Assembly (NCBI GenBank): GCA_963845565.1
Contig: CAWJSJ010000001.1
Coordinates: 704,001-768,000, forward strand
DNA from: an uncultured Methylomirabilota bacterium
GTDB taxonomy: Bacteria > Methylomirabilota > Methylomirabilia > Methylomirabilales > 2-02-FULL-66-22
Reading direction: 5' to 3'
DNA length: 64,000 nt
The position numbers were made by a program, and so were the translations under genes. Numbering within the stretch: the stretch's first letter is position 1; each line of letters opens with the position of its first letter. Positions 8,110 to 37,320 of the stretch are shown piece after piece. The notes beneath the pieces are model-generated. The model did not search any database. It was not told the origin of the DNA and saw only the letters and a list, made by a program, of their open reading frames with translations.

Positions 8110-8110
8110 G

Positions 8111-9130: not shown

Positions 9131-9234
9131 CCACGATTCGCGTCGCATCGACCACAGACACCCGTGGTGGGATGGGGGCATTCCCCCTCCACCGACGCTG
9201 GTAACCTGACGGATCCCCAGTGACTGCTGGCCGC

Positions 9235-11975: not shown

Positions 11976-11988
11976 TTGGGGGCGAGGC

Positions 11989-14099: not shown

Positions 14100-14112
14100 C
14101 GAGGGAGTCCCC

Positions 14113-18764: not shown

Positions 18765-19658
18765 ATGGCACGACCGTCTGGACGCAAGGCGAGCAAATAC
18801 GCGTTCCTTCTTGGCGAGCACATCTCTCATTCGCTGTCACCCGCCATCCACAATCCCGCGTACACGGCCCTGGGATTGGACTACGAATTTGGCTTGATGG
18901 ACGTCCCGCCGTCGGGACTCCGGGAAGCGCTGGCGCGCATGCGGGAGCCGGACTGCCTGGGGGGCAATATCACCATGCCCTACAAGCGCGACGTCCTGGC
19001 CGCAGCGGACGAGTGCTCGGACACGGTCCGTCGGTGCGAGGCCGCCAGCCTCATGATTAACCGCAAGGGGCGGTTCTTGCTGCACAACAATGATGTCGAA
19101 GCGATCGCTGCGTGCCTGGGTCGTCGCGCGGCCACGGTGGCCAAGGGCCCCGCGGTGATCATCGGGGCAGGGGGCTCGGCCGCCGCGATGCTGGAGGCGC
19201 TGCGCCGCGTGCCACCGACCCGAATCGTCGTGCTGGCTAGGCGGCCGGAAGCCGCCAAGGCGCTCGTCGAGCGGGCCAAAGAGTGGGTCGGAGTTCCGAT
19301 CGAGTCGGGTCATCTCGCGGAAGGTGGCGGGAAGATGGCCGACGCGGCCGTCATTTTCAACGCGACATCCCTGGGCGTGCACCCGGATGACCCCAGCCCG
19401 GTGCCCCGGGAGGTCTTGCGACCTGGCCTGCTGGTCTATGACATCGTGTACCAACGTGAGGCGCTAAACACGCTGCAAACCGAGGCCCTGGCTGCAGGCG
19501 CACTGGTGTGCGACGGGATGATGCACATCTTTGAGCAAGCACCGTTCAGTTTCCAGATGCTCACGGACCGCGAGGCGCCGCGCGCTTTGATGCTGGAGAG
19601 TCTGGTCGCGGCGACCGGGCGCAAGCCACTCGATTGGGGGTCGGATTCAACCGTGTGA
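18765..19658 (+). CDS. Shikimate/quinate dehydrogenase family protein (divergent AroE paralog)
   Basis: GEHISHSLSPAIHN, GGNITMPYK, IGAGGSA, NATSLG, YDIVY, DGMMH. Confidence 0.85.
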   Translation: MARPSGRKASKYAFLLGEHISHSLSPAIHNPAYTALGLDYEFGLMDVPPSGLREALARMREPDCLGGNITMPYKRDVLAAADECSDTVRRCEAASLMINRKGRFLLHNNDVEAIAACLGRRAATVAKGPAVIIGAGGSAAAMLEALRRVPPTRIVVLARRPEAAKALVERAKEWVGVPIESGHLAEGGGKMADAAVIFNATSLGVHPDDPSPVPREVLRPGLLVYDIVYQREALNTLQTEALAAGALVCDGMMHIFEQAPFSFQMLTDREAPRALMLESLVAATGRKPLDWGSDSTV

Positions 19659-19682
19659 GTCATGAGGGTTGGAGGTCTAGGC

Positions 19683-19934
19683 TCAAGGTTGAAGGTTGAC
19701 ACTATTCTGCCCCTTCCTCGTGGCGCGCCAGGTCCGCCGGAACCGCGGGAACCTTCCTCTCTGTTTCTCTCGTGATGGCTTGAACCGCCCCGTCAAGTTC
19801 CTGCGCAAGCCGTTCGACCAGGATCAGGTCGGACCCTGCACGGCCCAGAGCCCTCGCAACAGCGAACCCGATCCCACGTGCCGACTCGGTAACCAGGTAA
19901 CCTTTCCAACGAGTGAGAATCCTGTCGGAATCAT
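19683..19934 (-). pseudogene. Truncated, frameshifted SDR 5' remnant
   Basis: RBS GGAGA + MIPTGFSLVGKV, then shifted frame LVTESARGIGFAVARALGRAGSDLILV..VPADL; degenerate TGxxxGIG motif; ends after about 80 codons. Confidence 0.7.
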
Positions 19935-20125
19935 CTGGTCTCCATCTGAGGATCGCTCAATAAGGCAGATCATCCGTGGCGGCCTCCGGCGAAAGGCGGG
20001 CGGCGGAGTCCAAGGAATAGACACGTTCCGTAATAGCGCTTGACAGGATTTCTTACGCTATGCTATCGATATTTTGACAATATAACACGAATATATTACT
20101 AACATTTTGAGTGGAAGAGAATCCA

Positions 20126-20767
20126 ATGCCAGAGTCCAAGAGTAAGAAGTTGCTTGTCTATGACGTACTCAAAGAACGGATCATTGCCCAGATCATGAAG
20201 CCAGGAGAGCCCATCAACGAGGGAGTCCTTTCTCAGGAGCTCGATATCAGCAAGACACCCATACGGGAAGCCATCCAGCAGTTGGAGAAGGAGGGTTTCA
20301 TCGAAAACATCCCAGGCAAAGGGAACTTCGTCTCCTACATCTCCATCCAGGGCCTCCGAGAGCTCTTCGAGATCCGAGAGATGCTGGAGTGCGAGGCGAT
20401 CAAGCGGGCAGCCGTGAAGCGCGACCCGCAAAAACTGACGGAGATCCGGAAGGCGTTCGAGTTGTCTGGGGAGTCCTCGCAGAATGGATCACCGCGGCAG
20501 TTTCGTGCAGGCGAGCACATTCACATTTTCATCTTCGAATCGCTCGGAAACCAGCGCTTGTTGGAAATCTACCGCCGGCTGCACGATCACATCGCCAGAC
20601 ATCGGAACTATTTCTTCAGCGACGTGCACGAGGGGCGACCAGAGAAATCCTATCGCGAGCACCTGGAGATCCTGGACGCGCTGGCTGCGCAGGATCCTAC
20701 CCGGTGCGAGCACGCCATGAGGGAGCATCTCAGGAATTCTCTGGATTACGTCAAGAGCATCATCTGA
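20126..20767 (+). CDS. GntR family regulator (FadR/FCD type)
   Basis: VYDVLKERII..PGEPINE..ISKTPIREAIQQLEKEG HTH; GNQRL and EHLEILDAL FCD motifs. Confidence 0.93.
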   Translation: MPESKSKKLLVYDVLKERIIAQIMKPGEPINEGVLSQELDISKTPIREAIQQLEKEGFIENIPGKGNFVSYISIQGLRELFEIREMLECEAIKRAAVKRDPQKLTEIRKAFELSGESSQNGSPRQFRAGEHIHIFIFESLGNQRLLEIYRRLHDHIARHRNYFFSDVHEGRPEKSYREHLEILDALAAQDPTRCEHAMREHLRNSLDYVKSII

Positions 20768-20903
20768 GACCGGCAGGGGACTCCGCTACCGCAGTGTTGC
20801 CCCGCGCGCGGCGGAGTGGCTTCCGCGTAAGCGGGCAGGTCGCAGTAGGGAATTCAGCGGCCGTGTGCGGGTTCGAATGTCGACTCTCCAGGAGTGAAAA
20901 GCC

Positions 20904-21575
20904 ATGATACACATCAAGACCACAATTGAACGCCCCTCCAAGGAGTTGACGGAACGCTTCAGCAAACTCGGATCCGCCACGGTCCACGAGGCATCAGGGC
21001 GGAAGGGAGTTGTGAATCCCGCGATCAAACCCATTCGGAAGGGCCTGCGCCTCTGTGGTCCGGCGTTCACTGTCCAGTGCGGCCCTGGCGACAACCTGAT
21101 GCTCCATAAGGCCCTTGAGAAGGCCCAACCCGGCGATGTGCTCGTCACCTCGGTCAGCGGGTATCCGGAGGGCGGGTACTTTGGCGGTCTGATGGCGGTT
21201 TCGGCGGTCGCGCGTCGTCTCGGGGGGCTTGCCATTGACGGCTGCATTCGAGATTCGGAAGAGATCATCGCGATGGGCTTCCCCATCTTCGCCCGGGGGT
21301 TTTGCATCCGTGGCACGAGCAAGTCGGTGGCGGGGCTGATAAATCATCCGACGGTTTTTGGCGGTATCGTGGTCCAGCCGGGCGACCTAATCCTGGGCGA
21401 CGACGACGGTCTGGTCACGATAGCGCGCACCGAGGTCGAGTCGGTGCTCGAGAAGGCGTTGCAGCGGGTGGAGGCGGAAGCTAAGAAATCGGAGCAGCTC
21501 CGGAGCGGCATTTCGAGCGTCGAGCTCAATAAACTCGGCAAGGTCTTCGAGGCGCTGGGGCTCGTCGAGGAGTAG
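20904..21575 (+). CDS. RraA-family HMG/CHA aldolase (LigK-like)
   Basis: GSATVHEA, GPAFTV..PGDNLMLH, GGYFGGLM, DGCIRD, PGDLILGDDDG. Confidence 0.88.
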   Translation: MIHIKTTIERPSKELTERFSKLGSATVHEASGRKGVVNPAIKPIRKGLRLCGPAFTVQCGPGDNLMLHKALEKAQPGDVLVTSVSGYPEGGYFGGLMAVSAVARRLGGLAIDGCIRDSEEIIAMGFPIFARGFCIRGTSKSVAGLINHPTVFGGIVVQPGDLILGDDDGLVTIARTEVESVLEKALQRVEAEAKKSEQLRSGISSVELNKLGKVFEALGLVEE

Positions 21576-21579
21576 GCCC

Positions 21580-22618
21580 ATGGCTACGGTCACCCCGGAA
21601 CGCTTGACAGAGGTCGTCATCGAAGTGCTGAAGGGGTTCGGGGCGGCGGAGGATGAGGCTCCCATCGTCGCGGAGAGCCTCGTCCGCGCCGAGATGCGGG
21701 GCACCGATACCCACGGCCTTCCGTATCTGAAGCTGTTGGTCGAACGGGTCGAAGCCGGAATGGTGTCGCTCCCGACCCGGGTCACGGTCCGCAACGACGA
21801 CGGCGCGACGGCGCTGCTCGACGGAGGGAACGGAATCGGGCAAATCGCGGGCTGGCAGGCCATGGAACGGAGCATTCGCAAGGCCCGGGAACACGGGATC
21901 GGCCTCACGCTCGTCCGGAATACCAACAACCTTGGGTTCCTCGCGTTCTATACGATGCACGCGGCAGAACAGGGATTCGTCGGCATCACGATGGGCAACG
22001 CGAACGCCGCCATTTCGCCATGGGGTGGCGCCGAGGCCTTCTTTGGTACCAACCCCCTCTCCATCGCGGTCCCAGGCAGTGGGGAGCCGGTGGCGTTGGA
22101 TATGTCGTCGAGCGTGGTGGCGCGCGGCAAGGTCCGCAAGGCGCAGCGGCTCGGCGAAAAGATCCCACTCGGATGGGCGCTGGATGAGGCGGGTGTGCCG
22201 ACCGACGATCCCGGCGCGGCGCTCAAGGGAACGCTGCTTCCTATCGGAGGGCCGAAGGGGTACGGCTTAGCGTTCATGGTGGATGTGCTCGCCGGGATGC
22301 TCTCCGGTGCGAAATTCGGACGGGACATCAAGAGTTTCCATCAACTCATGGGGCCGACCGAGGTCGGCGCGCTGACGATCGCGATCAATGTCGAACGCTT
22401 CATGCCCCTCGAGTCGGTTCAGGGACCTGATGAAAGGATATGTCGATTCGATCCGCGGAAGTCGGAAGGCGAAGGGAACGGATCGGATCTATTTGCCGGG
22501 GGAGATCGAGTCCGAGAAAGAAAAGACGAGCCGAGAGCGGGGCATCGAGCTGAAACCGGCGTCCATCGAGTTGGTGAATCAACTGCTGGAGAAGATTCGG
22601 AGCCAGGTGCGCCTCTAG
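21580..22618 (+). CDS. Ldh_2 family (ComC/AllD-like) 2-hydroxyacid dehydrogenase, +1 frameshift near 22414
   Basis: GTDTHG, DGGNGIG, FGTNPLSIA, LDMSSS, GGPKGYGL; family C-terminus RIYLPGEIE lies in the next frame, ending TAG 22618. Confidence 0.87.
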
Positions 22619-22753
22619 GTCAAAACGAAGACCATCGAAAAGAGCTGTCGATATCATTGTAGTCGCTGATCATTCAAATAGTTATGGAACATACATAAAG
22701 TTTTGTCGTGTTCTGAGTGTTCCCGATGACGCTCTTAACTCGAGGAGGATGTC

Positions 22754-23500
22754 ATGGACGAAATGAAGGAGCTGGTGGTCGTCGTCACGGGGTCGGGGAA
22801 GGGGTTGGGGAAGGGAATTGCCGAGAGGTGCTACGGCGAAGGCGCCACGGTCGTCACCTGGGATCGATCCGGCGCGGCGAAGGCCGTCGCGGATACCCTC
22901 GATCCGTCTGGGAAGCGGACGCTGTACGTCCAAGCGGATGCGGTGAAGGAAGAGCAGGTGGTCCGCGCCCTTGATGAGGTCGTCAAGAGATTCGGCCGGG
23001 TGGATGTTCTGGTCAACAACGCCGGGATCTCGCGCCACAAGCCGATCGAGGAGATGACGCTGGAGCTCTTCGAAGAGGTGATGAAGATCAACGTGACCGG
23101 CCTCTTCCTTTGCTGCAAGGCCGTGGTCCCCATCATGAAGAAACAGGGGCGCGGGAAGATCGTCAATATCTCGTCCCTGGCCGCTCGGACGGGTCGGCCA
23201 GGGGTCGGCGTGAACTACGCCGCCTCCAAGGGCGCCGTGGTCTCCATGACGCAGACCTTGGCGCGAGAGTTGGGCCCCGCCGGGATCTACGTGAACGCCA
23301 TCGCTCCCGGCTCAGTGCTGACAGAGCAGACGCGCCAGTATCCCCCGGAGGTGTTCGCGAAATGGAATGCCGGGCGGGCGGTTCAACATGACGGGCTCCC
23401 AGAGGATGTGGGGGACGCGGTCATCTTCCTGGCGTCGAAGCGCTCAGACTGGGTCACGGGCGTCACGCTCGATCTCAACGGAGGGATCCTGATCCGCTAG
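22754..23500 (+). CDS. SDR family NAD(P)-dependent oxidoreductase
   Basis: TGSGKGLG, LVNNAG, NISS, YAASK. Confidence 0.95.
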   Translation: MDEMKELVVVVTGSGKGLGKGIAERCYGEGATVVTWDRSGAAKAVADTLDPSGKRTLYVQADAVKEEQVVRALDEVVKRFGRVDVLVNNAGISRHKPIEEMTLELFEEVMKINVTGLFLCCKAVVPIMKKQGRGKIVNISSLAARTGRPGVGVNYAASKGAVVSMTQTLARELGPAGIYVNAIAPGSVLTEQTRQYPPEVFAKWNAGRAVQHDGLPEDVGDAVIFLASKRSDWVTGVTLDLNGGILIR

Positions 23501-23544
23501 GGCAGTCGTTGGCGTAGACCGGTCATACGGGAAAAGGAGAGACT

Positions 23545-23904
23545 ATGTCGGAACTGAAGGTCATCAACATCAAGGACGTGAAGGGCGAGCGGCGAGATCC
23601 GCCGCGCATGTCGTGGGTGCTCGTCTCCGAGAAGACCGTGGGGGCCCAGAATCTCGCCATGGGGGTTAATGAGACGTACCCCGGCGGTATGGTGCCGGAA
23701 CACAAGCACGACAAGGAGGAAGAGGTGATGTTCTTCCTCGCGGGCCGGGGGACCTTTGTCACGGAAGACAGAGAGATTCCTTTGGAGCCGGGAGTGTGCA
23801 TCTACAATCCACCCGGGAAATCGCACAAGATCATTAACACAGGGGACGAGGTCCTCCGGTTTGTCTGGATCTATTCGCCCCAGCTTCCTGGTCATCGGAA
23901 GTAG
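23545..23904 (+). CDS. Cupin domain protein
   Basis: PGGMVPEHKH..EE and PPGKSH cupin metal motifs. Confidence 0.9.
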   Translation: MSELKVINIKDVKGERRDPPRMSWVLVSEKTVGAQNLAMGVNETYPGGMVPEHKHDKEEEVMFFLAGRGTFVTEDREIPLEPGVCIYNPPGKSHKIINTGDEVLRFVWIYSPQLPGHRK

Positions 23905-23991
23905 GGAGAAACAGCGGTTAGCGATCAGCAATCAGCAATCAAGCGTATGGCCGGCAAATCAACAGGCAATTTCTCGACAAGGAGACTCACG

Positions 23992-24957
23992 ATGGGAAAT
24001 TGGACGCTGCCCCCCACGGGCGGTCACATGGAAAAGCCCTCGAAGATCTATTACCAGACGATGACGAAGAAGGACGTGGAGGAGCGCCTGAAGGTGAACG
24101 ACATCCTGCTCATCCCGTTCGGCTCGACCGAGAACCACGGCGACGCGCAGCCGTATGGCGAGGACGTGTTCATCGTGACGAGGATGTGCGAGATGATCGC
24201 GCAGAAGACCGGATGCACCGTGGCGGAGCCACTCTGGTACGCGTCGCATCCCTTCGCCCACCTGGGGCAGACGGGGACCGTTCCCATCCCCGATGACCTG
24301 ACATCGGCGCTCGTGCGCTCAATCGTCTCAGGGTACTGGAACGCAGGGTTCCGCAAGCAGATCCTGATGAGCAGCCACGGGCAAGAGTACATCATCCCAT
24401 CGGCCATCCAGGAGTGGGCCAAGAAGTACCAAGTTCCTGCCGTGATCATCTTCCTGGACGTGATGAAGATCATGGGCGACGCGTTGAAGGACAAGGCCCA
24501 CGGCGGCCCCTTCGAGACCCCCTTCCGGCACGGTGACGAGGCGGAGAACTCCATCTGCCTGGCGCTCTTCCCGGAGTTCGTGCAGATGGAGAACTGCGTC
24601 GACACCAAGACGTGGGGCTTCCTGCCCGAAGGGCATATCGACAAGGGCGGCGACATCTACAACTACCCCATCCCCGGCCAGAGCCACGTTGGCGGCAGCG
24701 GGGTGGAGTTCGCGATTTACCCGGAAGGCGTGATGGGCAAGCCCTCGCTCGCCAAGCCCGAGAAAGCTTACCAGGCCATCGAGAACTACTTAGACTACGT
24801 TGTCAAGCTGCACAACGACATCCGGGCGAAATTCCCTCCGGGGGTACTGCCGGAGGCAAAGTACATGACCCAGAGGAGCGAGGAAGAGATCGATCTCCTC
24901 CTCAAGGGGCCGGACAGGGGCGGTAGGCACATCTACACGATCGCCTGGCCCTCGTGA
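23992..24957 (+). CDS. Creatininase-fold hydrolase, 3-dehydro-scyllo-inosose hydrolase (IolN)-like
   Basis: IPFGSTENHG..GED, SSHGQE, PFRHGDEAE; N-terminus WTLPPTGGHMEK resembles the IolN subfamily (from memory); RBS AAGGAG. Confidence 0.78.
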   Translation: MGNWTLPPTGGHMEKPSKIYYQTMTKKDVEERLKVNDILLIPFGSTENHGDAQPYGEDVFIVTRMCEMIAQKTGCTVAEPLWYASHPFAHLGQTGTVPIPDDLTSALVRSIVSGYWNAGFRKQILMSSHGQEYIIPSAIQEWAKKYQVPAVIIFLDVMKIMGDALKDKAHGGPFETPFRHGDEAENSICLALFPEFVQMENCVDTKTWGFLPEGHIDKGGDIYNYPIPGQSHVGGSGVEFAIYPEGVMGKPSLAKPEKAYQAIENYLDYVVKLHNDIRAKFPPGVLPEAKYMTQRSEEEIDLLLKGPDRGGRHIYTIAWPS

Positions 24958-24971
24958 TCGGGAAGATTGTG

Positions 24972-25035
24972 GTGAAGGCAATCGTCAAGACAGACCAGAG
25001 CCGGGCTCCCATGCCCGGAACCCGGCTCTGGAGAG
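24972..25035 (+). pseudogene. Short 5' remnant of a second Zn-dependent dehydrogenase
   Basis: VKAIVKTDQ then, in a shifted frame, PEPGSGE, mirroring MKAIVKARED..PEPGPGE of the downstream gene. Confidence 0.45.
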
Positions 25036-25113
25036 CCCGCTACTTGGACTATCGACGGTGGGGGAGGGAGCCTCTCGAGCCTCCCCCGCAATCTCACCAC
25101 GTGAGGTCCGCAC

Positions 25114-26183
25114 ATGAAAGCGATCGTGAAAGCCAGGGAAGATGCGGGGGCGATGGAGGTGCGCGACCTCCCGATCCCGGAGCCAGGTCCCGGTGAAGTT
25201 CTTGTGAAGATGAAGGCGGCGGGGATCTGCTTCAGCGATTTCATGATCCTGACCAACAAGTACAAGGGCCGCGTGCCCGTCCCGATCCCCATGATCATGG
25301 GCCATGAGGGTGCGGGAGTCGTGGCCGACGTAGGGAAGGGAGTCGCAACACGTCAAGGCCGGGGACAAGGTCGGACTGAATCCCCTCTGGGGCTGCGGGC
25401 AGTGCGAGAACTGCTTCAACGGATACCCGAACATGTGCATGACCTGGCGGCATCTGGGAATCACGTGTGACGGCACGTTCGCGGAATACCGCGCCGTGCC
25501 GGCCTTTGTCGCCTGCAAACTCGCGGACAGCGTCTCGCCGATCGATGCCGCCTTCATCGAGCCGATCAGCCTCGCGGTCGGCACCTTCGAGCATGTGAGG
25601 CCCATGCTGGGGGATACGGTGGCCATCATCGGCCCCGGGTCGATCGGCTTGTTTCACCTGCAGGCGTTCAAGTCTGCGGGTGCTGGGAAGATCATGGTCA
25701 TCGGCCTCGACAAGGACGCTCAGCGGCTGGAGATCGCGAAGAAGCTGGGCGCCGACCACATCATCAAGGGAGCAAGGAAGATGTGGTGAGCGCTTGAGAT
25801 CACCTGGGAGCAAGGAAGATGTGGTCCAGCGCGTTCGGGAGCTCACCAACGGCCTGGGGGCCGATATCGTGGTGGAAACCGCGAATCACCCCTCGACCGT
25901 TCCGCTGGCCGTCAGCCTGGCAGCCCCCAAGGGGCGTGTCCGTCTCTTCGGCCTATACCCCGAAGCGACCATGAGCCCCCTGACCCTTCTCCGCGCCGGC
26001 GTGACGATGGTCGGGGATGTGGCGACGAATACGCGCTATTTCCTGCGCGCCATGCGTTGGATCGAATACAGGAAGGTGCTGGCCCAACCAATGGTGAGTT
26101 GCCGCTTCGCACTGGATCAGGCCAAGGAAGCCTTCGACGCCTTTTCCCAGGGAGGTGCGGTCAAGGTGCTCTTCGAGATTTGA
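25114..26183 (+). CDS. Zn-dependent (MDR) dehydrogenase, interrupted near 25350 (+1) and at 25768-25804 (37-nt insertion)
   Basis: GICFSD, GHEGAG, CGQCENC..C structural Zn, EP, GPGSIG, GADIVVE, AVKVLF spread over three frames. Confidence 0.88.
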
Positions 26184-26331
26184 GCCTCCGAGGTGAAGTC
26201 GTAGGTGTGAGGCCGTCGCGACCAACCGAGCCGGACCCACTTCTGGAGCCAGTTGAAGGGAAGGTTTCGAAAGTCTGCGGGGCCGGTGCACTGCCTGTAA
26301 GTGGTGAGAAGGAACTCTGAAGGGAGAGGCG

Positions 26332-26778
26332 ATGAAGAAGATTCTGGTGCTGCACGGTGTCAATCTCAACATGTTCGGAAAACGGGACCCCGCCCAGTAT
26401 GGGACGATCACCCTGGACGAGATCAACCAGCAGCTCCAGACCCTGGCCAGGGAGCTGGGCGTGGAGCTGGAAACGTTCCAGACAAACTTCGAGGGCGAGA
26501 TCTGCGAGAAGATCCACAAGGCTCATCTGGACAAGGTGGACGCAGTGGTCATCAACGCGGGTGCCTGGACCCATTACAGCATCGCGCTTCGCGACGCCCT
26601 GGCGATCCTGAAGGTTCCCATCATCGAGTGTCACATGTCGAACATCCACGCGCGAGAAGAGTTCCGGCACGTCTCTCACGTGTCGCCCCTCGCGAAAGGG
26701 ATCATCGCGGGATTCGGAGTCCACAGTTATCTGTTGAGCTTACGGGCCGCCGTCACATTGATTACGGACAAGGAGTAG
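26332..26778 (+). CDS. aroQ: Type II 3-dehydroquinate dehydratase
   Basis: LHGVNLNMFGKRDPAQYG, INAGAWTHYSIALRDA, ECHMSNIHAREEFRH. Confidence 0.96.
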   Translation: MKKILVLHGVNLNMFGKRDPAQYGTITLDEINQQLQTLARELGVELETFQTNFEGEICEKIHKAHLDKVDAVVINAGAWTHYSIALRDALAILKVPIIECHMSNIHAREEFRHVSHVSPLAKGIIAGFGVHSYLLSLRAAVTLITDKE

Positions 26779-26910
26779 CAGAGGGAAGCGGTCAGCCTTC
26801 AGTTTCAGAGATGACGCGAAGAGTCGCCTCGAAATAGGCATGGGACCCGTTCCGAAGCTGATTGCTGACTGCTGAGTGCTACGGTCATTCCACTCGAAGG
26901 AGGAGTCACG

Positions 26911-28641
26911 GTGCGCAACATCGTGAGGGCGAATACGCGAACAGGAGAAATCCGGGTTGCTCCTTGCTCGAATGAGGAGCAGCGATGGGGTGGCCGATCG
27001 CTGATCGCCCACCTGATGCTGCGGGAGGTTTGGCCCGGGTGTAATCCACTAGGGAGGGAGAACAAGCTCATCGTCGCATCCGGGTGGTTGGGTGATACCG
27101 CCGTGACGACGGCGGGACGTTGCTCCATTGGGGGCAAGAGTCCCCTGACGGGTGGGGTCAAGGAGGCGAACGTCGGCGGCGAACCCGGAAAACAGATAGC
27201 CCGACTCGGCGTGCGCGCCTTGGTGTTGGAGGACGCACCGGAACGGCCGGAGCCCCGGGTGTTGTGGGTCGGAAAGGACACCTGCGAACTGCTCCCCGCA
27301 CCGGACCTGCGGGGCCTCGAGATGGGGGCGACCTTCGACGCACTCCGCGGCCGTTTCGGTGCGCACACCAGCTTTTTCTGCATCGGGCCTGCGGGCGAGA
27401 TGTGCCTCGGTTCAGCCGCCGTCGCTACCACGGACAGGACCGGAGCGCAGGTACGGTTTGCGGCCCGAGGTGGGCTCGGCGCCGTCATGGGATCCAAGGG
27501 CATCAAGGCGATCGTCTTCGACGATACGGGGGCCCGCCCTGACCCGGCGCACGATCCGGAAGGCCTTGCGGCGGCCGGCCGGGAGGTATGGCAGATCCTC
27601 CGCGATGACCCGAAGACGCAGAACCGCCACGACTTCGGCACACCAGCCGTTCTCGCCATCTGTGACTCGCTGGGTATTCTTCCCACGCGCAACTTCCAAA
27701 CAGGCCACTTCGAGGAGTTCGAGGCCATTTCCGGGGAGCGCGTGGCCGACCTGATCGTGGGCCGAGGAGGCGAAGGGGAGCGGGGTTTACTCTGCGTTCG
27801 CGGGTGCAATATCCAGTGTTCGAACAACTTCGCTGACGCGGCGGGGAAGACGCTGGTGGCTTCACTGCAATACGAAAACATCGGCCTATTGGGCTCCAAC
27901 TGCGGCATCGGCGACGTGGACGAGGTGGCCAGAATCAACCATCTCTGCAACCAGGTGGGCGTGGATACCATTGAAGTAGGTGCTGCTATCGGCGTGGCCA
28001 TGGAGGCCGGAATCATCGCCTTTGGCGATGCGACTGGCGCGAAGGATCTCGTCCGGCAGATCGGCGAAGGCACCCCGCTGGGCCGGGTGCTCGGGAGCGG
28101 CGTCGTCATCACCGGGAAGGTTCTGGGGGTTAGGAGAGTTCCGGCTGTGAAGGGCCAGGCGATACCCGCCTACGATCCGCGATCGCTGAAAGGCATCGGT
28201 GTGACGTACGCCACGTCCCCAATGGGCGCAGACCACACCGCAGGAAACGCGCTGGAGATGGCCAAGGTGCTCGATCAGAAAAAGAAGGAGGGACAGGTCG
28301 AGGCATCGTTGCGGCTCCAAGTCCGGGCAGCCCTCCTCGACAGTCTGGGGGTTTGTCTATTCATTCGCCCCGCCTTCGTCAAGGACCCGAACCTAATGGC
28401 CCGCCTGCTCAACGGGCGTTACGGCTGGTCGTTAACCTACGCCGACGTACAGAAGATGGGTCTCACATGTCTTCAGATGGAACGGGATTTCAACCGACGC
28501 GCCGGCGTCTCGGATGAACTGTGCGACGTTCCGGAGTTCATGCGGAACGAACTCCTGCCGCCCTTCGATACGGTATTTGACGTGTCGCGCGAGGACATGC
28601 GGCGGATCTGGGATGTGAAACTGCCGGAGGGTGTGTTTTAG
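26911..28641 (+). CDS. Tungsten aldehyde:ferredoxin oxidoreductase family protein
   Basis: GKSPLTGG, IGPAGE, ARGGLGAVMGSKGIKAI, CVRGCNIQC, YDPR, SPMGADH. Confidence 0.92.
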   Translation: MRNIVRANTRTGEIRVAPCSNEEQRWGGRSLIAHLMLREVWPGCNPLGRENKLIVASGWLGDTAVTTAGRCSIGGKSPLTGGVKEANVGGEPGKQIARLGVRALVLEDAPERPEPRVLWVGKDTCELLPAPDLRGLEMGATFDALRGRFGAHTSFFCIGPAGEMCLGSAAVATTDRTGAQVRFAARGGLGAVMGSKGIKAIVFDDTGARPDPAHDPEGLAAAGREVWQILRDDPKTQNRHDFGTPAVLAICDSLGILPTRNFQTGHFEEFEAISGERVADLIVGRGGEGERGLLCVRGCNIQCSNNFADAAGKTLVASLQYENIGLLGSNCGIGDVDEVARINHLCNQVGVDTIEVGAAIGVAMEAGIIAFGDATGAKDLVRQIGEGTPLGRVLGSGVVITGKVLGVRRVPAVKGQAIPAYDPRSLKGIGVTYATSPMGADHTAGNALEMAKVLDQKKKEGQVEASLRLQVRAALLDSLGVCLFIRPAFVKDPNLMARLLNGRYGWSLTYADVQKMGLTCLQMERDFNRRAGVSDELCDVPEFMRNELLPPFDTVFDVSREDMRRIWDVKLPEGVF

Positions 28642-28899
28642 TTTGGGCCCGAAGTGCGACCGGACGGCTGTGCGTGCCACGCCACGGGGAGTCTCCCGAC
28701 TCGGACACGGAGAAATATACGGGATTTCTGCGATAGACGGGCAGAGAACGCTCGAGATCACCCTGGCTATCCAAAGGTCTGGTGAGACCAGGCAGCCTCC
28801 TCGGTTGGCATGAGTCAAGAAGGGGAAGCGCAAAGACGTCGGATATGAGGGTATGACATGGTGTGGCCGGTGCCCGTGTCCGGTCACCAGGAGGGAGTG

Positions 28900-29376
28900 A
28901 TGCTCCAACGGCTAAGCGGCGCGTTGCGACGTTGCACCGAAATCGCGATCATGGTCCTCATGGGGTTCCTTGTGGTGATCGTAGTGGCGAGTGTTCTGTT
29001 CCGCTACATCTTGTTTGCGCCGCTCTCGTGGTCCGAGGAGGTGGGCCGGTATTTGATGATCTGGCTGGGGTTCTTAGCGGCTAGCATTGCCATTCGACAA
29101 GGACTGCACGTCGGTGTGGAGGTCGTGGTTCAATGGGTTCGGCCGGAGATTTCTACCCGGCTGAGAGGGTTGGCCCGCGGGGCGACGATCGGTTTCCTCC
29201 TGATCGTGATGGGCTACGGTTTCTTCCTCGTCACCAACCTGTGGGAGCAGTGGAGTCCGGTCATGGGCATCCGGATGACTTGGCCATACCTTGCGATTCC
29301 GGTCGGCAGCCTCCTAATGTTGATCCAAATGGTGACGCCGTCAAGCCAAGAAACCAAGACTGAGGCAGCGGGTTAG
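28900..29376 (+). CDS. dctQ: TRAP transporter small permease
   Basis: Four hydrophobic segments, WSEEVGRYLMIW, HVGVE. Confidence 0.9.
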   Translation: MLQRLSGALRRCTEIAIMVLMGFLVVIVVASVLFRYILFAPLSWSEEVGRYLMIWLGFLAASIAIRQGLHVGVEVVVQWVRPEISTRLRGLARGATIGFLLIVMGYGFFLVTNLWEQWSPVMGIRMTWPYLAIPVGSLLMLIQMVTPSSQETKTEAAG

Positions 29377-29385
29377 GAGGAATCC

Positions 29386-30669
29386 ATGCTGACGATTTTG
29401 GCGCTGACATTTCTAGTGACGGCCGCGATCGGCGTCCCAATCGCCTTTGCCCTCGGTTTGGCGGCGGCGGCGGCGGTGGTGGTCTGGGGGCAGGTGCCAC
29501 TCTGGCTGCTTCCCCAGCGGATGTTCACAGGGGTGGACAGCTTTGTCTTCATGGCCATTCCCTTCTTCATCCTCGCGGGCGAGCTGATGTGTACCTCAGG
29601 GATCCTCGACCGTCTTGTGAAGTTCACCGACGCGTTAGTAGGTCACATTCGGGGTGGATTGGCTCACGTGAACATCGTGGCAAGCATGATCTTTGCGGGA
29701 ATCAGTGGTTCCGCCGTCGCCGATGCTGCGGCTCTGGGTGCAATCTTGATCCCGAGCATGCAGAAAGAGTACGACGTCGATTTCGGGAGTGGAGTCTGCG
29801 CGGGCGCTTCGACCATCGGACCCATCATCCCGCCCAGCATCCCGATGGTCATTTATGCCCTGGCTGCCGGTGGGGTTTCGATTGCGGGCCTGTTTTTGGC
29901 CGGGGTCATTCCTGGCATTCTCATGGGTCTAGGAATGATGACCATCGCGTATATCATCGCACGGCGCCGCGGTTATCCGGTCCGACCCCGATCGCTCTCT
30001 GCGGGCGACCTCCTGGTGCGGTTGTGGCAGGTGATCCCGGCGTTGCTCATGCCGATCATTATCGTGGGTGGGATTCTCGGCGGGATCTTCACCGCGACGG
30101 AGGCGGCAGCCGTCGCGGTGGCGTATGCCGTTCTGGTGGGATTTCTGGTTACCAAAGAACTAAGATGGCGAGACATTCCCCCTGCCCTGCTGAAGGCGGG
30201 CATTACCACGTCTGTGGTCTTTATGCTCATTGCGACGTCCAACGTGGTTTCCTGGCTACTCACTACCCAGCAGGTTCCCCGTTTGGTCGCTCAGTTTCTC
30301 CGGGACGTGGCCCCCAGCCCCTGGATTTTCCTCTTGTTGGTGAACATCTTCCTCCTGATCGTCGGCTGCTTGCTGGACCTCAGTGCCGCGATCATCATGT
30401 TCGTGCCTATCTTGGCGCCGGTGGCGTTGATCTATGGCGTGGACCCTCTCCATTTCGGCTTCGTTGTGGTGCTCAACCTAGTCATCGGCCTGCTGACCCC
30501 ACCGGTCGGGGTCTGCCTTTTCGTGGTTGCCGGGATTGCCAGAATCTCGTTGGAGCGTCTGGTTCGAGCGGTCTGGCCGTTCTTGCTCTGGCAGCTTGCG
30601 GTACTCGGACTGGTTACCTACGTGCCTGGAGTTTGCACAGCGATTCCGCGATTCTTCGGATACCAGTGA
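29386..30669 (+). CDS. dctM: TRAP transporter large permease
   Basis: AIPFFILAG, GGLAHVN, SGSAVAD, GPIIPPS, FTATEA, TPPVG. Confidence 0.95.
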   Translation: MLTILALTFLVTAAIGVPIAFALGLAAAAAVVVWGQVPLWLLPQRMFTGVDSFVFMAIPFFILAGELMCTSGILDRLVKFTDALVGHIRGGLAHVNIVASMIFAGISGSAVADAAALGAILIPSMQKEYDVDFGSGVCAGASTIGPIIPPSIPMVIYALAAGGVSIAGLFLAGVIPGILMGLGMMTIAYIIARRRGYPVRPRSLSAGDLLVRLWQVIPALLMPIIIVGGILGGIFTATEAAAVAVAYAVLVGFLVTKELRWRDIPPALLKAGITTSVVFMLIATSNVVSWLLTTQQVPRLVAQFLRDVAPSPWIFLLLVNIFLLIVGCLLDLSAAIIMFVPILAPVALIYGVDPLHFGFVVVLNLVIGLLTPPVGVCLFVVAGIARISLERLVRAVWPFLLWQLAVLGLVTYVPGVCTAIPRFFGYQ

Positions 30670-30785
30670 GGTACGGCGCACAACCGATGACCGTCAACGA
30701 AAGGAGGTGGGGTCATTCCTTGTATCAGCCGGAAAGTGTTGCATCTGGTTGGCAACCTCACGTGAGAGAAGGAGGATACGGTACC

Positions 30786-31826
30786 ATGTCTAAGTACGTT
30801 TCGGCGATAGCGGTAGGGATCTGTTTGCTGCTGGTTGGGCTTGCCCCCGGCGCGCTTCCGACGGTGCAGGCCGCGCAGTTCGATATTCGGCTCGGTCACT
30901 CCGATCCCCCGGATATCCACACATCGCGAAAGGCAGCGGGATCCACGGTGTTTAAGAATCTGGTCGAGAACGAGACGGGCGGGGCCGTCAAGATCAACTT
31001 GTTCCCGGCGGGCCAGCTCGGAGCCGAGCGCGAGGTGGCTGAGGCGGTCAAGCTGGGCAGCGTCCAAATGGGAATGCTGTCCGGTCCGTTCAGCGGGTTC
31101 TGCAAGGAAGCGCAGGTGTTCGATATTCCCTATCTCTTCCCGTCGCTCCTCGTGGCGTATCGTACGCTGGACGGGCCGTTTGGCAAGGAGCTGGCGCAGG
31201 AGTGCCTGCAGAAGACTGGCATGCGCATTTTGACCTATGCCCAGGTCGGCTTCCGCAATTTCACGAACTCCGCGCGCGTCATCAAGAGCCCTGCGGATGT
31301 GAAGGGGCTCAAGTTCCGGGTGATGGAGAATCCGGTCTACATGAACCTCGTGCGGTCCATGGGTGGCGCGCCGACGCCGATCCCCTGGCCGGAGACCTAC
31401 ACCGCGCTCCAGCAAAAGGTCGTGGATGGGCAGGAGAATCCGATCTCCGCGATTCAGTTCGCCAAGCTGTATGAGGTGCAGAAGTATATGACCATGGATG
31501 GGCACACCTTCGGCGTGAGCTTCATGCTCATCAATGAGAAGTTCTTCCAGAGTCTGCCCAAGGAGTACCAGGCGATCGTGAAGAATGCGGCCGTGACCTC
31601 GGCGGTTTCCGAGAACGGAATCGACAACCTCGTTTCTGCCATCGGCATCCAGTTTCTGAAGGACAAGGGAATGGAGATCTACACTCCGACAGCCTCGGAG
31701 AAGACCCAGTTCAGGACTGCAGCGCAACCGGCAGTCATCGAGTACCTGGAGAAGCAGATCGGCCGGCCCTGGATCGATAAGGTGCTGAACGCCGTCAAGC
31801 AGACGGAAGCGGCGTTGGCGCAATAA
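30786..31826 (+). CDS. dctP: TRAP transporter substrate-binding protein
   Basis: Signal peptide, FPAGQLG, GFRNFT, GLKFRVM (carboxylate-binding Arg), YTALQQKVVDGQEN; RBS AAGGAGG. Confidence 0.93.
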   Translation: MSKYVSAIAVGICLLLVGLAPGALPTVQAAQFDIRLGHSDPPDIHTSRKAAGSTVFKNLVENETGGAVKINLFPAGQLGAEREVAEAVKLGSVQMGMLSGPFSGFCKEAQVFDIPYLFPSLLVAYRTLDGPFGKELAQECLQKTGMRILTYAQVGFRNFTNSARVIKSPADVKGLKFRVMENPVYMNLVRSMGGAPTPIPWPETYTALQQKVVDGQENPISAIQFAKLYEVQKYMTMDGHTFGVSFMLINEKFFQSLPKEYQAIVKNAAVTSAVSENGIDNLVSAIGIQFLKDKGMEIYTPTASEKTQFRTAAQPAVIEYLEKQIGRPWIDKVLNAVKQTEAALAQ

Positions 31827-32017
31827 GGAGAATTTCGCGCACGCTTGGACTCGCGTCCGAGATGGATGTGGCCCTCCCGGTCGGATCGATCATTGGTCGA
31901 GGAGGCGAAGGCCTGACACATGGCACGCTGCGAGGGCAGGCGTTGTTTGTCTGTCCTCGCAGCAGAATGTGCTGATATGAAAGGGGTGCTGCTTCTCACA
32001 CTTGTGAGGTCGGTCAA

Positions 32018-32329
32018 ACGATAGTTATCCGTTTCTTCGCAAGCATCCGAAATGTGACGGGTGTGAAGGAGATCGAGTGGGACGAGCCGACGCCCACGCT
32101 GGGCGAATTGCTCCGTCTGCTTTCGAATCAGTACGGCCCTGAGTTTCGGCGGTGGGTGCTCGATGGTGGGAACCTGAGTGGCGCGGTCATGGTGGTGATC
32201 AACGGCGACGATGCGCGGCACCAGGCGGGGCTGTCAACACCTCTCCACCCGGAGGACGTCGTGTCAATCCTGCCCATGATGGCCGGGGGGTCTGGTGTAG
32301 GGCGGGGAGGGGACCATGGCGCCGTTTGA
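32018..32329 (+). CDS. MoaD/ThiS family sulfur carrier
   Basis: IVIRFFASIRNVTG..VING..LHPEDVVSILPMMAGG; conserved N-terminus begins at ACG 32018, upstream of the first GTG at 32054. Confidence 0.78.
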   Translation, partial: TIVIRFFASIRNVTGVKEIEWDEPTPTLGELLRLLSNQYGPEFRRWVLDGGNLSGAVMVVINGDDARHQAGLSTPLHPEDVVSILPMMAGGSGVGRGGDHGAV

Positions 32330-33443
32330 CGCAGGTAAATTATACCGCCTTATGGAGGAGGCGGGCTTGCAAATGGTTCTCGCCTGTACGCGGCACAACG
32401 TCCGGTACCTCACGGGAGGGTACGCGTATCATTTCCTTTCCCGCGCACCGCGATTTGGACGCAGCCAGTATCTCCCGTTCGTGGGCCTCCCCCGAGGGCG
32501 CTTCGATGAGGCGTTCTATGTCGGTCGTGCGGATGAGCGCAGCCAGATCGAAACGGAAGGGCTCTGGATCTCCCACCGGATAGCCACGCCGGTCGGCACG
32601 GTCAATGCGGCTGAAGGCGTGATGCAGGCGGCCCGGCAGCTCGGTATTACCGAGGGCGTTATAGGGGTGGAGATGTCCTTTCTCCCCGGGGATGCGCTCC
32701 TCACGCTGCAGCGCGGTCTCCCCAAGGTGACGTTCGTGGACGCCACACCGGTCCTGGAAGAGCTCCGCGCCGTGAAGACGCCAGCCGAGGTGGCCCACCT
32801 GCGGACAGTGTACGACCGTGTGGCAGAGGCGATCCAGGCCGCGTTCGCCGCCGGCAGGCCCGGAGTGACGACCGCGGCGATCGCGCGACGGGTAGAGCGG
32901 GAGATGGCTCAGCGAAACGTTGCCTTCCTCTTTGCCTTCACGTGCGCCGGACCGGGGACTCTCCGGGTGCCGTCTTCTGTCCGATGGGAATCCGGGTGCG
33001 TCCTCCACATTGACGCCGGGGGAGAGGAGGGCGATTATCTGGCCGACATTTGTCGGATGGGGTGCCTTGGAGAGCCCTCAAGCCTCGCTCGGGACTTACA
33101 CGGGGCCTGCATCGAGGTGCAGGGACGGGCCCGGAAGTTGGTGCGGGCAGGTCTCCCGTGTCGGGAGCTGTTGGTTGAAGGGGAGCGCGCGGTCAGAGAG
33201 AATCGCTTCTGTTCCTATGGCAGATTCGTGGCCCACGGTATTGGCATGGTGTCCCACGAGCAGCCGGACATCTCGTCCAGTGATACGCGGCCGCTGGAGG
33301 CCGGCATGGTCCTCTCGATCGAGACGGACTTCATTCATCCGGACGTCGGCCACGTGAAGATCGAAGACGCCGTGGCCGTGACGGAAAACGGCTGCGAGGG
33401 ACTCGGCGACCTAGGCCGCGACTGGCGCATCATCCCCGTGTAA
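32316..33443 (+). CDS. M24 family (Xaa-Pro peptidase/creatinase-like) hydrolase
   Basis: NVRYLTG, LRAVKT, ID..YLADICR, HGIG..HE, SIE, KIED. Confidence 0.85.
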   Translation: MAPFDAGKLYRLMEEAGLQMVLACTRHNVRYLTGGYAYHFLSRAPRFGRSQYLPFVGLPRGRFDEAFYVGRADERSQIETEGLWISHRIATPVGTVNAAEGVMQAARQLGITEGVIGVEMSFLPGDALLTLQRGLPKVTFVDATPVLEELRAVKTPAEVAHLRTVYDRVAEAIQAAFAAGRPGVTTAAIARRVEREMAQRNVAFLFAFTCAGPGTLRVPSSVRWESGCVLHIDAGGEEGDYLADICRMGCLGEPSSLARDLHGACIEVQGRARKLVRAGLPCRELLVEGERAVRENRFCSYGRFVAHGIGMVSHEQPDISSSDTRPLEAGMVLSIETDFIHPDVGHVKIEDAVAVTENGCEGLGDLGRDWRIIPV

Positions 33444-35291: not shown

Positions 35292-35348
35292 CCCGATAGG
35301 ATGGCTGCAAGAGACAGTGGACGCTAGTCAGGAGGCGAACTGATCCCT

Positions 35349-36443
35349 ATGGATGCGGTGCGCGTGAACCTCAAAGGTCGAGGATACGAAATCCTTGTGG
35401 GGCCGGACCTGCTTCGCCAGTCCGGCGACATGATCCGGCCGCTGGCGCTCGGGCGACACCTCGCGCTCGTCACGCACCCGGTTTTGGCGGAAACCCACGG
35501 GTACGCCCCGGCGCTGGCCGCCTCGCTGCGGGAGGTTGGCCACGAGGTGAGCCTCGTCACGGTCCCCCCCGGCGAGGAGAGCAAATCCTTGGATCAGGCG
35601 GCTCGCCTGTGTCGGGAGTTGGTGCGTGTCGGGCTGGACCGCGGCTCCGCTATTCTCGCGCTCGGTGGCGGAGTGATCGGAGACCTCGCCGGGTTCGTTG
35701 CCGCCACACTTTTTCGGGGCATTTCGTTCATCAATCTCCCAACCACGCTCCTGGCGCAGGTGGACAGCAGCATCGGGGGAAAGACAGGCGTAAACCTCCC
35801 CGAGGGAAAGAACTTGGTCGGCACGTTCTATCAGCCGCGATTGGTCCTGGCAGACGTGCTGACGTTGAAAACGCTCCCGCCGCGGGAGTTTCGTTCGGGA
35901 TTGGCGGAAGTCGTCAAGCACGCCATGATCGCGGATGCGGAGCTTTTCGGCACGCTGGAGCGAGATACCGATCGGGTACTGGCTCGGAATGCGGAGGTCC
36001 TTCAAGGCATCGTGGCGAAGAACTGCGCCATCAAGGCTCGGATCGTGGAGCAGGACGAGCGCGAGACGGGAGTCCGCGCGGTCCTGAATTTCGGGCATAC
36101 CGTCGGCCATGCGGTCGAGGCGGCACTCGGCTATGGGGTGGTCACGCACGGCGAAGCGGTGGCGTACGGGATGCTGGTCGCAACGGCGCTCTCGGTCCGG
36201 CGGGGTCTGTGCACGCGCTCGGATGCCGCTCGGCTGGCAGCGCTCCTGCGCCGGTTCGCCCTCGTCCCGGCTGCGCCGCCGTCGCCGGAACTCCTTGAAA
36301 AATATATGGTTAGAGACAAGAAGACGCGCGACGGGGTGCTGCAATTCGTGTTGACACCTGGAGTGGGAAATGTTACCGTCGCGCCGGTTTCCGACCGGAA
36401 CGATCTCCGGGAAGCCCTCCATAACTGGCAGGCGTACGTCTAG
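35349..36443 (+). CDS. aroB: 3-dehydroquinate synthase
   Basis: GGGVIGDLAGF, PTTLLAQVDSSIGGKTG, LNFGHTVGHA, HGEAV, DKK. Confidence 0.96.
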   Translation: MDAVRVNLKGRGYEILVGPDLLRQSGDMIRPLALGRHLALVTHPVLAETHGYAPALAASLREVGHEVSLVTVPPGEESKSLDQAARLCRELVRVGLDRGSAILALGGGVIGDLAGFVAATLFRGISFINLPTTLLAQVDSSIGGKTGVNLPEGKNLVGTFYQPRLVLADVLTLKTLPPREFRSGLAEVVKHAMIADAELFGTLERDTDRVLARNAEVLQGIVAKNCAIKARIVEQDERETGVRAVLNFGHTVGHAVEAALGYGVVTHGEAVAYGMLVATALSVRRGLCTRSDAARLAALLRRFALVPAAPPSPELLEKYMVRDKKTRDGVLQFVLTPGVGNVTVAPVSDRNDLREALHNWQAYV

Positions 36444-36570
36444 GTTCCGCGAACACAGAAGACAGGCGATTCGAGACTCCGCGCCGGAGAGTGCGGGCGC
36501 CCGGATCCCCTCGGTGGTGTTTTTCGCGAACGGCGCACGGATGAGCCTCGAACGCCTGTAGGAGTCTGTC

Positions 36571-37245: not shown

Positions 37246-37320
37246 CGAGTGCGCGCGGGTGGTCTTGGGGGGGGCGCCCGCATCATGTTCTCGTTCTTGC
37301 TTTGAAAGGAGTGGACGCAC

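Follow-up and report, generated by a model that had tools for sequence, protein, structure and literature searches.

The plant acids quinate and shikimate are abundant and find their way into wetlands, sediments, digesters and guts; their textbook catabolism needs aromatisation and O2. A gene cluster of an uncultured Methylomirabilota bacterium, in which candidate ring dehydrogenases, a putative ring hydrolase, a dehydroquinase and an aldolase are encoded side by side, raises the question of whether these acids could be broken down in another way. The cluster lies at 18765-33443 of the window, by which we mean the whole 64,000-nucleotide stretch that was analysed (C1:704001-768000 of a 5.36 Mb genome, 98.7% complete). 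An earlier note on this DNA had listed the genes and proposed such a route; profile scans confirmed the gene list, the gene order and the common + strand (Table 1). The cluster is a real, conserved and apparently undescribed anaerobic catabolic operon. We consider quinate or shikimate its probable substrate, and we lean, with less assurance, towards the specific proposal that the operon encodes an O2-independent, non-aromatising quinate route through 4-carboxy-4-hydroxy-2-oxoadipate (CHA), with shikimate as an optional entry.

In the proposed route, a tripartite ATP-independent periplasmic (TRAP) transporter would import quinate and shikimate. A Zn-dependent medium-chain dehydrogenase/reductase (Zn-MDR), together with a short-chain dehydrogenase/reductase (SDR) or a Gfo/Idh/MocA protein, would act as NAD(P) dehydrogenases, remove 4H from quinate (C7H12O6) at C3 and C5 and give 3,5-didehydroquinate, a 2-hydroxy-1,3-diketone like the substrate of IolN. 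The IolN paralogue of the cluster would open this ring by retro-Claisen hydrolysis, yielding HOOC-CH2-C(OH)(COOH)-CH2-CO-CH2OH. The cupin may then convert the ketol to a 2-hydroxyaldehyde, the aldehyde:ferredoxin oxidoreductase (AOR) would oxidise the aldehyde to a 2-hydroxyacid, and oxidation of the 2-hydroxy group by the Ldh_2-family dehydrogenase would then yield CHA (C7H8O8), which the RraA-family aldolase is predicted to split into pyruvate and oxaloacetate. The net reaction would be quinate + 2 H2O -> pyruvate + oxaloacetate + 8[H]. Shikimate could enter through AroE and AroQ, with dehydroshikimate and dehydroquinate as intermediates; in this genome both enzymes probably serve biosynthesis too. 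Gene content, conservation, phylogeny and family membership were observed; the substrate, the reactions, their order and their regulation are what we infer from them.

The conservation of the gene kit around the hydrolase was evaluated first in 61 loci whose hydrolases share 59-97% identity, found in Spirochaetota, Thermodesulfobacteriota, Atribacterota and Bacillota. The hosts are mostly strict anaerobes, and the same gene set recurred around these homologues beyond chance in a neighbourhood check of the kind proposed in the earlier note. Isolates bearing the cluster include F. orotica DSM 1287, H. stercorisuis DSM 15480, T. subterraneus DSM 21563 and F. ferrireducens Y170. Further rows came from relatives of the host, from random draws of 401 genomes in each of three groups (hits in 14, 32 and 17 genomes, from which 13 genomes plus 40 chosen regions were used) and from 80 of 569 metagenome hits. 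After matches with fewer than 230 aligned residues were removed, 202 IolN-like rows were left, and their tree consisted of the window clade (149 rows), sister groups (16) and an inositol-type group (37). Support for the window clade was 0.91 in FastTree with all 202 rows, and 100 by SH-aLRT in a 63-row subset. At an E value of 1e-20, the hydrolase had no match in plasmid records.

Partner genes were counted by tblastn thresholds within ~11 kb of the hydrolase gene (20 kb at three merged loci); these counts are descriptive only, since short contigs are frequent and related genomes do not count as independent. Among the 149 window-clade rows, the cupin was present in 129, Ldh_2 in 103, AOR in 100, RraA in 99, DctP in 92 and a first MDR in 86, followed by a TIM barrel (39), a second MDR (29), M24 (22), aroE (17) and an HMGL-like lyase (6). 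RraA and M24 were found in none of the 53 other rows. An SDR homologue at 50% or more was present in 86 compared loci including the window, and gntR is the first cluster gene at most loci.

Because the hydrolase passes the IolN equivalog model NF041098, the cluster could be read as an inositol pathway of the Thermotoga type whose lower half is new, and IolG-like Gfo proteins do occur at 41 compared loci. The AlphaFold2 model of the hydrolase (pLDDT 93) has a creatininase fold (Foldseek E 2.5e-15 to 1Q3K), and its binuclear metal ligands (E, H, D, H, E) align to those of creatininase and are invariant. NF041098 accepts the sister clades as well, so its score (537 bits in F. orotica) has no power to separate substrates or clades. 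The partner genes argue against inositol: IolM, IolO and transketolase were each absent from all 149 window-clade rows, whereas they were found in 17, 33 and 12 of the 37 inositol-type rows, where a sugar ATP-binding cassette (ABC) transporter was counted in 17 and RraA, DctP and dehydroquinase in none. Intact orthologues of the cluster MDR scored 199-201 bits against an IolM cut-off of 450, while true IolM proteins of the same genus reached 545-560; likewise, IolO scored 333 against a cut-off of 300 in an inositol-type locus of the same genus (L116), and the cluster TIM barrel only 59. Profile scans found no IolO in the window, and a carboxylate TRAP takes the place of the sugar ABC transporter.

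The host has a second IolN, 51% identical to the window hydrolase, on contig C2. Its locus (L062, G000 C2 ~1196000-1204000) contains an IolM-like MDR, two IolN-like genes, one of them frameshifted, an IolO-like TIM barrel, an IolE-like gene and a split transketolase. Residue 229 is Gly in 63/63 window-clade rows and Trp in 17/17 inositol-type rows; we suggest that the change from the invariant Trp to Gly may make room for a substituent. The inositol reading was rejected on the lack of IolM, IolO and transketolase and on the separate inositol-type iolN locus in the genome, and we regard it as very improbable. The quinate proposal would correct the database name 3-dehydro-scyllo-inosose hydrolase, given to the hydrolases of this clade, as a misannotation.

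The link to quinate and shikimate comes mainly from the dehydroquinases. The earlier note expected aroQ and aroE to recur with the cluster; this held for dehydroquinase genes, since aroQ or aroD was present in 43/149 window-clade rows and in 0/53 others, and aroE turned out to be an accessory gene (17/149). The dehydroquinase count falls to 40/149 when two aroQs of the housekeeping kind, located next to prephenate dehydrogenase (L021, L227), and the contig of L210, a duplicate, are dropped. At least four unrelated dehydroquinase lineages lie near the cluster: the window-type aroQ, a tandem aroQ pair of Spirochaetota, an aroD of Lachnospiraceae, and another aroD located directly after the hydrolase gene in L008. 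The window aroQ groups with cluster copies from Syntrophobacterales and Smithellaceae (L049, L058; support 100/99), and its motifs KRDPAQYG and HMSNIHAREEFR, to which we presumptively assign the catalytic Arg, Tyr and His, are intact. In relatives, an aroQ stands beside efp (aroB-TPR-aroQ-efp, where TPR is a tetratricopeptide repeat gene) in 18/20 loci and forms a distinct clade; the count is 17/19 without G028, whose loci L065 and L087 were included in the aroQ and aroE trees and on which no conclusion rests. The window aroQ is ~50% identical to this housekeeping type and falls outside its clade. The possibility that it is a relocated housekeeping copy was ruled out by the tree and by G020, which has both copies. 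Where checked for, extra dehydroquinase copies are present: G020 has two aroQ genes, F. orotica has a pair of aroD genes, and G043 has two cluster aroQ plus an aroD elsewhere.

Other features of the clusters are in line with a hydroaromatic substrate. The Lachnospiraceae-type clusters encode a YdiM/N-like major facilitator superfamily (MFS) transporter (30-33%) and AroD (43-46%), and L208 also has a YdiB-like dehydrogenase (46%); these correspond to the quinate/shikimate genes of E. coli. Esterases are encoded inside L027 and L028, which fits a release from chlorogenate. No sugar-acid dehydratase or kinase family was recurrent in the cluster loci, which suggests that CH2 groups must already be present in the aldol substrate, as they are in quinate. 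In Spirochaetota (L012, L013, L014, L026, L042, L043, L051 and others), a tandem pair of divergent aroQ genes occurs next to the cluster, in several orientations, with a TIM barrel that lacks two metal ligands; the pair is possibly a heteromeric dehydroquinase that includes a pseudoenzyme.

Regarding the lower part of the route, the aldolase has 3NOJ as its closest structure (E 2.4e-48) and conserves the RD of DGCIRD, which we take to be the catalytic Arg-Asp. The HMG/CHA aldolase family uses 2-oxo acids. The cupin motif HxHxxEEE..H is kept in 42 aligned copies, and an ESM Atlas search gave only generic cupin matches. An NAD-type aldehyde dehydrogenase is found in the place of AOR at L002, L019 and L048, and a phosphoenolpyruvate carboxykinase gene is located beside five loci, which fits oxaloacetate as a product.

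The same enzymes could also act on quinate with an early cleavage, in which the aldolase would split the ketol into oxaloacetate and hydroxyacetone, and the cupin, AOR and Ldh_2 would take the latter through lactaldehyde and lactate to pyruvate. The end products are identical to those of the route through CHA; the window aldolase lacks one aspartate of 3NOJ, and six Lachnospiraceae-type rows with an HMGL-like lyase and no cupin, AOR or Ldh_2 probably cleave at the ketol. However, the aldolase passes the CHA-aldolase equivalog NF006731, and the sister clade runs homologous cupin, AOR and Ldh_2 proteins without an aldolase (11/12, 9/12 and 7/12 gene maps, respectively). This suggests that the three enzymes act on the uncleaved, ring-opened chain and favours a late cleavage; the order through CHA given in the earlier note gains support from it, as an order that we still deduce. 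Early cleavage seems to us an unlikely variant, to be kept in mind.

The sister clade (L254-L258, L260, L261, L272, L119, L247, L249, L234, L282) differs from the window clade in its partners: a nitroreductase is present in 10/16 rows, a CoA-transferase in 8/16 and RraA in none, and most rows lack a ring dehydrogenase. These loci also encode a 146-163 amino acid protein without a Pfam family, a two-subunit CoA-transferase and TctABC. The sister clade is a candidate for a reductive gallate/pyrogallol ring-opening route. For the window cluster itself, gallate or another trihydroxy aromatic could enter by hydration (AroQ in reverse) or by reduction (AroE) and then be opened by the hydrolase. Aerobic gallate breakdown passes through CHA, and 3,5-didehydroquinate gives gallate on dehydration. 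Yet gallate would make the two or more ring dehydrogenases of the core needless, aroQ is missing from most rows, and the nitroreductase-bearing sister clade suits an aromatic entry better; we therefore hold gallate entry at the window cluster to be improbable.

The Lachnospiraceae-type variant (L052-L055, L154, L208) combines the HMGL-like lyase and the hydrolase with two Zn-MDRs, a TIM epimerase, a BaiCD-like flavoenzyme, aroD, the YdiM/N-like MFS transporter and, mostly, a TRAP transporter. It is a candidate for gut quinate fermentation to oxaloacetate and hydroxyacetone, with the flavoenzyme as electron sink. Such a cleavage needs a tertiary beta-hydroxy carbon, like C1 of quinate.

Several observations weigh against the quinate route through CHA. 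The window aroQ and aroE are the sole copies in the genome, where no aroD was found, and of the six genus members with a window-type aroQ just G020 keeps the housekeeping type; a second role in biosynthesis is thus likely. The earlier note raised the caveat that aroQ may simply be the biosynthetic copy; as a sole copy it probably has that role, but it groups with the cluster aroQs of other phyla. AroE had been named, beside an SDR, for the first oxidation, and as a core entry step this did not hold: aroE occurs in 17/149 rows, and in G003 and G011 the aroE clade of the window is present in a context that lacks the cluster. In G006 the aroQ/aroE pair is present, and the clade hydrolase was not found there. 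None of the 12 window-clade loci from the random draws has a dehydroquinase within ~10 kb; a search of those 12 whole genomes found a window-type aroQ (63-84%) in four, one of them 13 kb off, no aroQ with the window-type query in six, and aroD in two. The scheme assigns no fixed step to the TIM-barrel, Gfo and M24 partners. The Lachnospiraceae-type variants, without RraA, cupin, AOR and Ldh_2, must cleave otherwise. The aldolase scores 201.1 with TIGR02798 (LigK/PcmE), below the cut-off of 304.5, and the Asp of GYFGD in 3NOJ, presumably a metal-site residue, is Gly in the window and varies (G/D/E/A, mostly Gly) in 43 aldolase copies. On chemical grounds, 3,5-didehydroquinate could also lose water to gallate.

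In another reading, the chemistry is the same and the core substrate is a different cyclitol acid or a deoxy-cyclitol (such as an epi-quinate, dihydroshikimate or a quercitol), with aroQ, aroD or aroE added in some lineages only. No dehydroquinase is near in 106/149 clade rows, including 12/12 of the random ones, and Gfo/Idh/MocA proteins and epimerase-like TIM barrels are common partners. Quinate itself does not need a dehydroquinase, and, given the 0/12 result, another cyclitol acid may be the substrate. On the other side, four unrelated dehydroquinase lineages were recruited to the window clade only, neutral quercitols are unsuited to a carboxylate TRAP, and the product from dihydroshikimate would lack the tertiary OH that the aldolase is expected to require. 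We give this reading a minor share of the probability, although a larger one than early cleavage, and keep quinate or shikimate as the favoured substrate.

AroE is divergent. It falls below all cut-offs (best 168 vs 252; TIGR00507 136 vs 200), and it is 29% identical to the housekeeping-type AroE of L083 and 77-92% identical to aroQ-adjacent copies in G006, G009, G013 and G014. The TMPYK lysine and the NND aspartate are kept, and the AVNT asparagine is replaced by Ser. In G003 and G011 (L111, L112), a window-type aroE (80%) stands beside a possible CoA-ligase-like gene, an SDR and an old yellow enzyme gene, or beside aroQ and an ABC transporter; this context perhaps represents a second hydroaromatic route. 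The housekeeping aroQ is missing between the TPR gene and efp in the window genome, G006 and G009.

Classical aromatisation to protocatechuate, followed by meta-cleavage to CHA with the remaining genes elsewhere in the genome, would also account for aroE, aroQ and a CHA aldolase, which belong to that route, and for the TIM barrel beside the tandem aroQs of Spirochaetota. The earlier statement that the window lacks a dehydroshikimate dehydratase and a ring-cleavage dioxygenase was borne out by profile scans of 21 proteins. Across the 98.7% complete genome, the intradiol dioxygenase family PF00775 had 0 matches, and the sole match to the LigB family (PF02900) is a 4,5-DOPA dioxygenase. The AsbF/QsuB-like motif, as we assume it from the known dehydratases, was found in none of 28 TIM barrels of the genome, a search that a QuiC2-type enzyme could escape. 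For both types of cluster TIM barrel, ketose epimerases/IolI are better matches than AsbF, and two metal ligands are missing from the aroQ-linked type; on these grounds the identification of these barrels as dehydroshikimate dehydratase was rejected. The hosts are also mostly strict anaerobes, and we find aromatisation the least credible of the explanations considered.

Table 1. Features of the cluster, with positions in the window and the profile or motif on which each assignment is based (scores against cut-offs)
Feature	Position	Strand	Basis
Divergent AroE-family (shikimate/quinate) dehydrogenase	18765..19658	+	PF08501
Conserved promoter and candidate GntR operator	20040..20096	+	TTGACA at 20040; ATAT-N7-ATAT 20069-20083; ATAT-N9-ATAT 20080-20096
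GntR/FCD regulator	20126..20767	+	PF00392 + PF07729
RraA-family HMG/CHA aldolase (predicted)	20904..21575	+	NF006731 213.8 vs cut-off 179
Ldh_2-family 2-hydroxyacid dehydrogenase	21580..22618	+	PF02615; frameshift at 22413
SDR dehydrogenase, candidate for ring-hydroxyl oxidation	22754..23500	+	PF13561
Monocupin, candidate ketol-aldose isomerase	23545..23904	+	PF07883; HxHxxEEE..H metal motif
IolN paralogue, creatininase-fold metallohydrolase	23992..24957	+	NF041098 493.6 vs 245
15-bp GC-rich hairpin between hydrolase and Zn-MDR	24995..25031	.	consensus scan only
Zn-dependent MDR dehydrogenase, candidate for second ring oxidation	25114..26183	+	PF08240/PF00107
Type II 3-dehydroquinase AroQ	26332..26778	+	TIGR01088 190.6 vs 169.85
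Aldehyde:ferredoxin oxidoreductase, AOR family	26911..28641	+	PF02730 (AFOR_N) + PF01314 (AFOR_C), above cut-off
TRAP small permease DctQ	28900..29376	+	PF04290; start chosen by ribosome-binding site
TRAP large permease DctM	29386..30669	+	TIGR00786 438 vs 268
TRAP solute-binding DctP	30786..31826	+	TIGR00787 230 vs 175
MoaD/ThiS sulfur carrier, start codon uncertain	32021..32329	+	PF02597
M24-family dimetal hydrolase, lactonase/esterase candidate	32316..33443	+	PF00557

Upstream of gntR, TTGACA followed by ATAT-N7-ATAT was present in 29/33 non-redundant regions, against a mean of 0.007 and a maximum of 1 in 300 block shuffles. The ATAT repeats are a candidate operator through which GntR would regulate its own gene. 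Since this conserved promoter lies in the ~450 bp gap between aroE and gntR, the main transcript probably begins at gntR; a generic promoter scan performed at chance level and overlooked it. The hairpin between the hydrolase and Zn-MDR genes is a possible site of mRNA processing or termination. Regarding transport, all three subunits of a carboxylate TRAP (DctPQM) are encoded, and DctP, aligned to the organic-acid DctP structures 4NQ8 and 4P9K, keeps the carboxylate-binding Arg (FRVMENP); a carboxylate ligand is predicted.

The remaining genes of the cluster are less constant. MoaD/ThiS occurs in just four compared loci including the window and is thus accessory; we propose that it supports the supply of the pterin cofactor for AOR. 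The M24 protein has a D-D-H-E-E metal set that aligns to prolidases. An add-on that recurs at L002, L007, L011, L019, L025, L036 and L038 contains a racemase-like gene, a cupin-like protein without a Pfam family, and glyoxalase or Gfo genes.

Two of the genes are interrupted in the assembly. A single extra base is present in ldh2 at 22413, and the two resulting frames match the intact G009 orthologue. The Zn-MDR gene has a single extra base near 25345 and a 37-bp insertion (25768-25804) that duplicates a short stretch. The insertion was skipped by the contigs of 3/3 wetland/freshwater DNA runs, the base near 25345 was missing from contigs of X3, X4 and the RNA run X15, and the base at 22413 was missing from the X3 contig, the sole contig listed over that position. 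These interruptions are most likely assembly errors, and the genes are intact in the close relatives present in those samples; decay of the pathway was ruled out by the same comparison. Contigs of X15 covered 20/30 bins, a coverage that DNA carry-over could explain and that we did not use as proof of expression. A nuoI-like gene at 14053-14635 of the window is also frameshifted, near 14343 relative to G009, which again points to indel errors in the assembly.

Searches for tRNA genes across the window and for Rfam RNAs across the cluster region found none. Downstream, at 33654-37878, lie an aroK-aroB fusion, a second aroB, a TPR gene and efp. The cluster often adjoins genes of aromatic biosynthesis (aroA, 3-deoxy-D-arabino-heptulosonate 7-phosphate synthase, aroK/B, prephenate dehydrogenase) across phyla (L008/L147, L018, L021, L044, L056 and the window). 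Upstream, at 6244-13380, there are genes for a 2-oxoacid:ferredoxin oxidoreductase and a GlcDEF-like oxidase, whose products could consume pyruvate derived from the pathway.

The proposed route resembles known systems in its parts. The inositol pathway of Thermotoga maritima, with IolG, IolM, IolN and IolO, was reportedly described by Rodionova et al. in 2013. In both this pathway and the route proposed for the cluster, a cyclitol is oxidised twice, which gives a 2-hydroxy-1,3-diketone, and a creatininase-fold enzyme cleaves a C-C bond by hydrolysis. Unlike that pathway, the cluster has a separate hydrolase clade, an MDR that is not IolM, a carboxylate TRAP, a lower module of cupin, AOR, Ldh_2 and CHA aldolase, and attached dehydroquinases, and it lacks IolO and transketolase. 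The last step is like that of protocatechuate 4,5-cleavage and gallate breakdown (LigK/PcmE/GalC, PDB 3NOJ) in aldolase family and in the proposed conversion of CHA to pyruvate and oxaloacetate. In contrast to protocatechuate 4,5-cleavage, no dioxygenase, 4-oxalomesaconate hydratase or tautomerase was seen in the cluster, and the way to CHA would consist of a hydrolysis and three redox or isomerase steps, all without O2. From its gene content, the cluster would join an IolM/IolN-type ring opening to a LigK-type last step, and it falls outside both parent pathways. The ydiM-ydiN-ydiB-aroD-ydiF-ydiO locus of E. coli is echoed in the gene set of the Lachnospiraceae-type clusters, and a YdiF-like CoA-transferase gene is near the cluster in G012 and G014; in the E. 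coli locus, as displayed, genes for an IolN-like hydrolase, an aldolase, a cupin and an AOR are all absent.

Anaerobic breakdown of quinate and shikimate without aromatic intermediates was reportedly described by Brune and Schink in 1992, and Propionivibrio limicola is said (Brune et al., in 2002) to grow on both acids without O2. Bacteria restricted to the fermentation of these two acids have been known for decades; to our knowledge, no genes are known for the anaerobic fermenters of these compounds. In the available text of one source, Ilyobacter insuetus ferments quinic and shikimic acid only (PMC10512730), and such fermentations are on record in reference entries of two others (PMC3035301, PMC4462926). 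The cluster is like I. insuetus and P. limicola in the proposed O2-free use of quinate and shikimate, and it is known here from genes alone. Classical quinate routes (QuiA/B/C, QsuBCD; Listeria qui1/qui2) aromatise through dehydroshikimate dehydratase to protocatechuate, according to the accessible part of a preprint (bioRxiv 10.1101/2025.04.08.647683). They share with the cluster a quinate/shikimate dehydrogenase and a dehydroquinase at the entry; unlike them, no dehydroshikimate dehydratase was found for the cluster. In the phloroglucinol pathway of Clostridium scatologenes, a metallohydrolase is described, in the portion available, as opening a cyclic 1,3-diketone anaerobically in a retro-Claisen reaction; this pathway differs from the cluster in its DPGC enzyme of the cyclase family, its reductive entry from an aromatic compound and its second cut by a beta-keto acid cleavage enzyme (PMC10470551). 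No published description of the route or of the cluster was found in a literature search with scant coverage of subscription journals.

Taken more broadly, and tentatively, the IolN paralogues may have radiated into a family of pathways, as yet undescribed, that open plant C6 rings by hydrolysis under anaerobic conditions and share the cupin/AOR/Ldh_2 module, which would lead from ketol through aldehyde and hydroxyacid to oxoacid. It might comprise quinate degradation via CHA, the Lachnospiraceae lyase variant (from the citryl-ketol to oxaloacetate and hydroxyacetone) and the reductive gallate/pyrogallol sister clade that bypasses phloroglucinol, with the first or second as the genetic basis of the quinate fermentation of 1992. 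The cluster gives a complete, mass-balanced and testable map from genes to reactions, in named cultured strains. If the proposal is true, it would provide candidate genes for a metabolism so far known from physiology alone, a defined catabolic role for a subfamily of AOR and for a subfamily of C-C hydrolases, and marker genes for the anaerobic turnover of hydroaromatic carbon.

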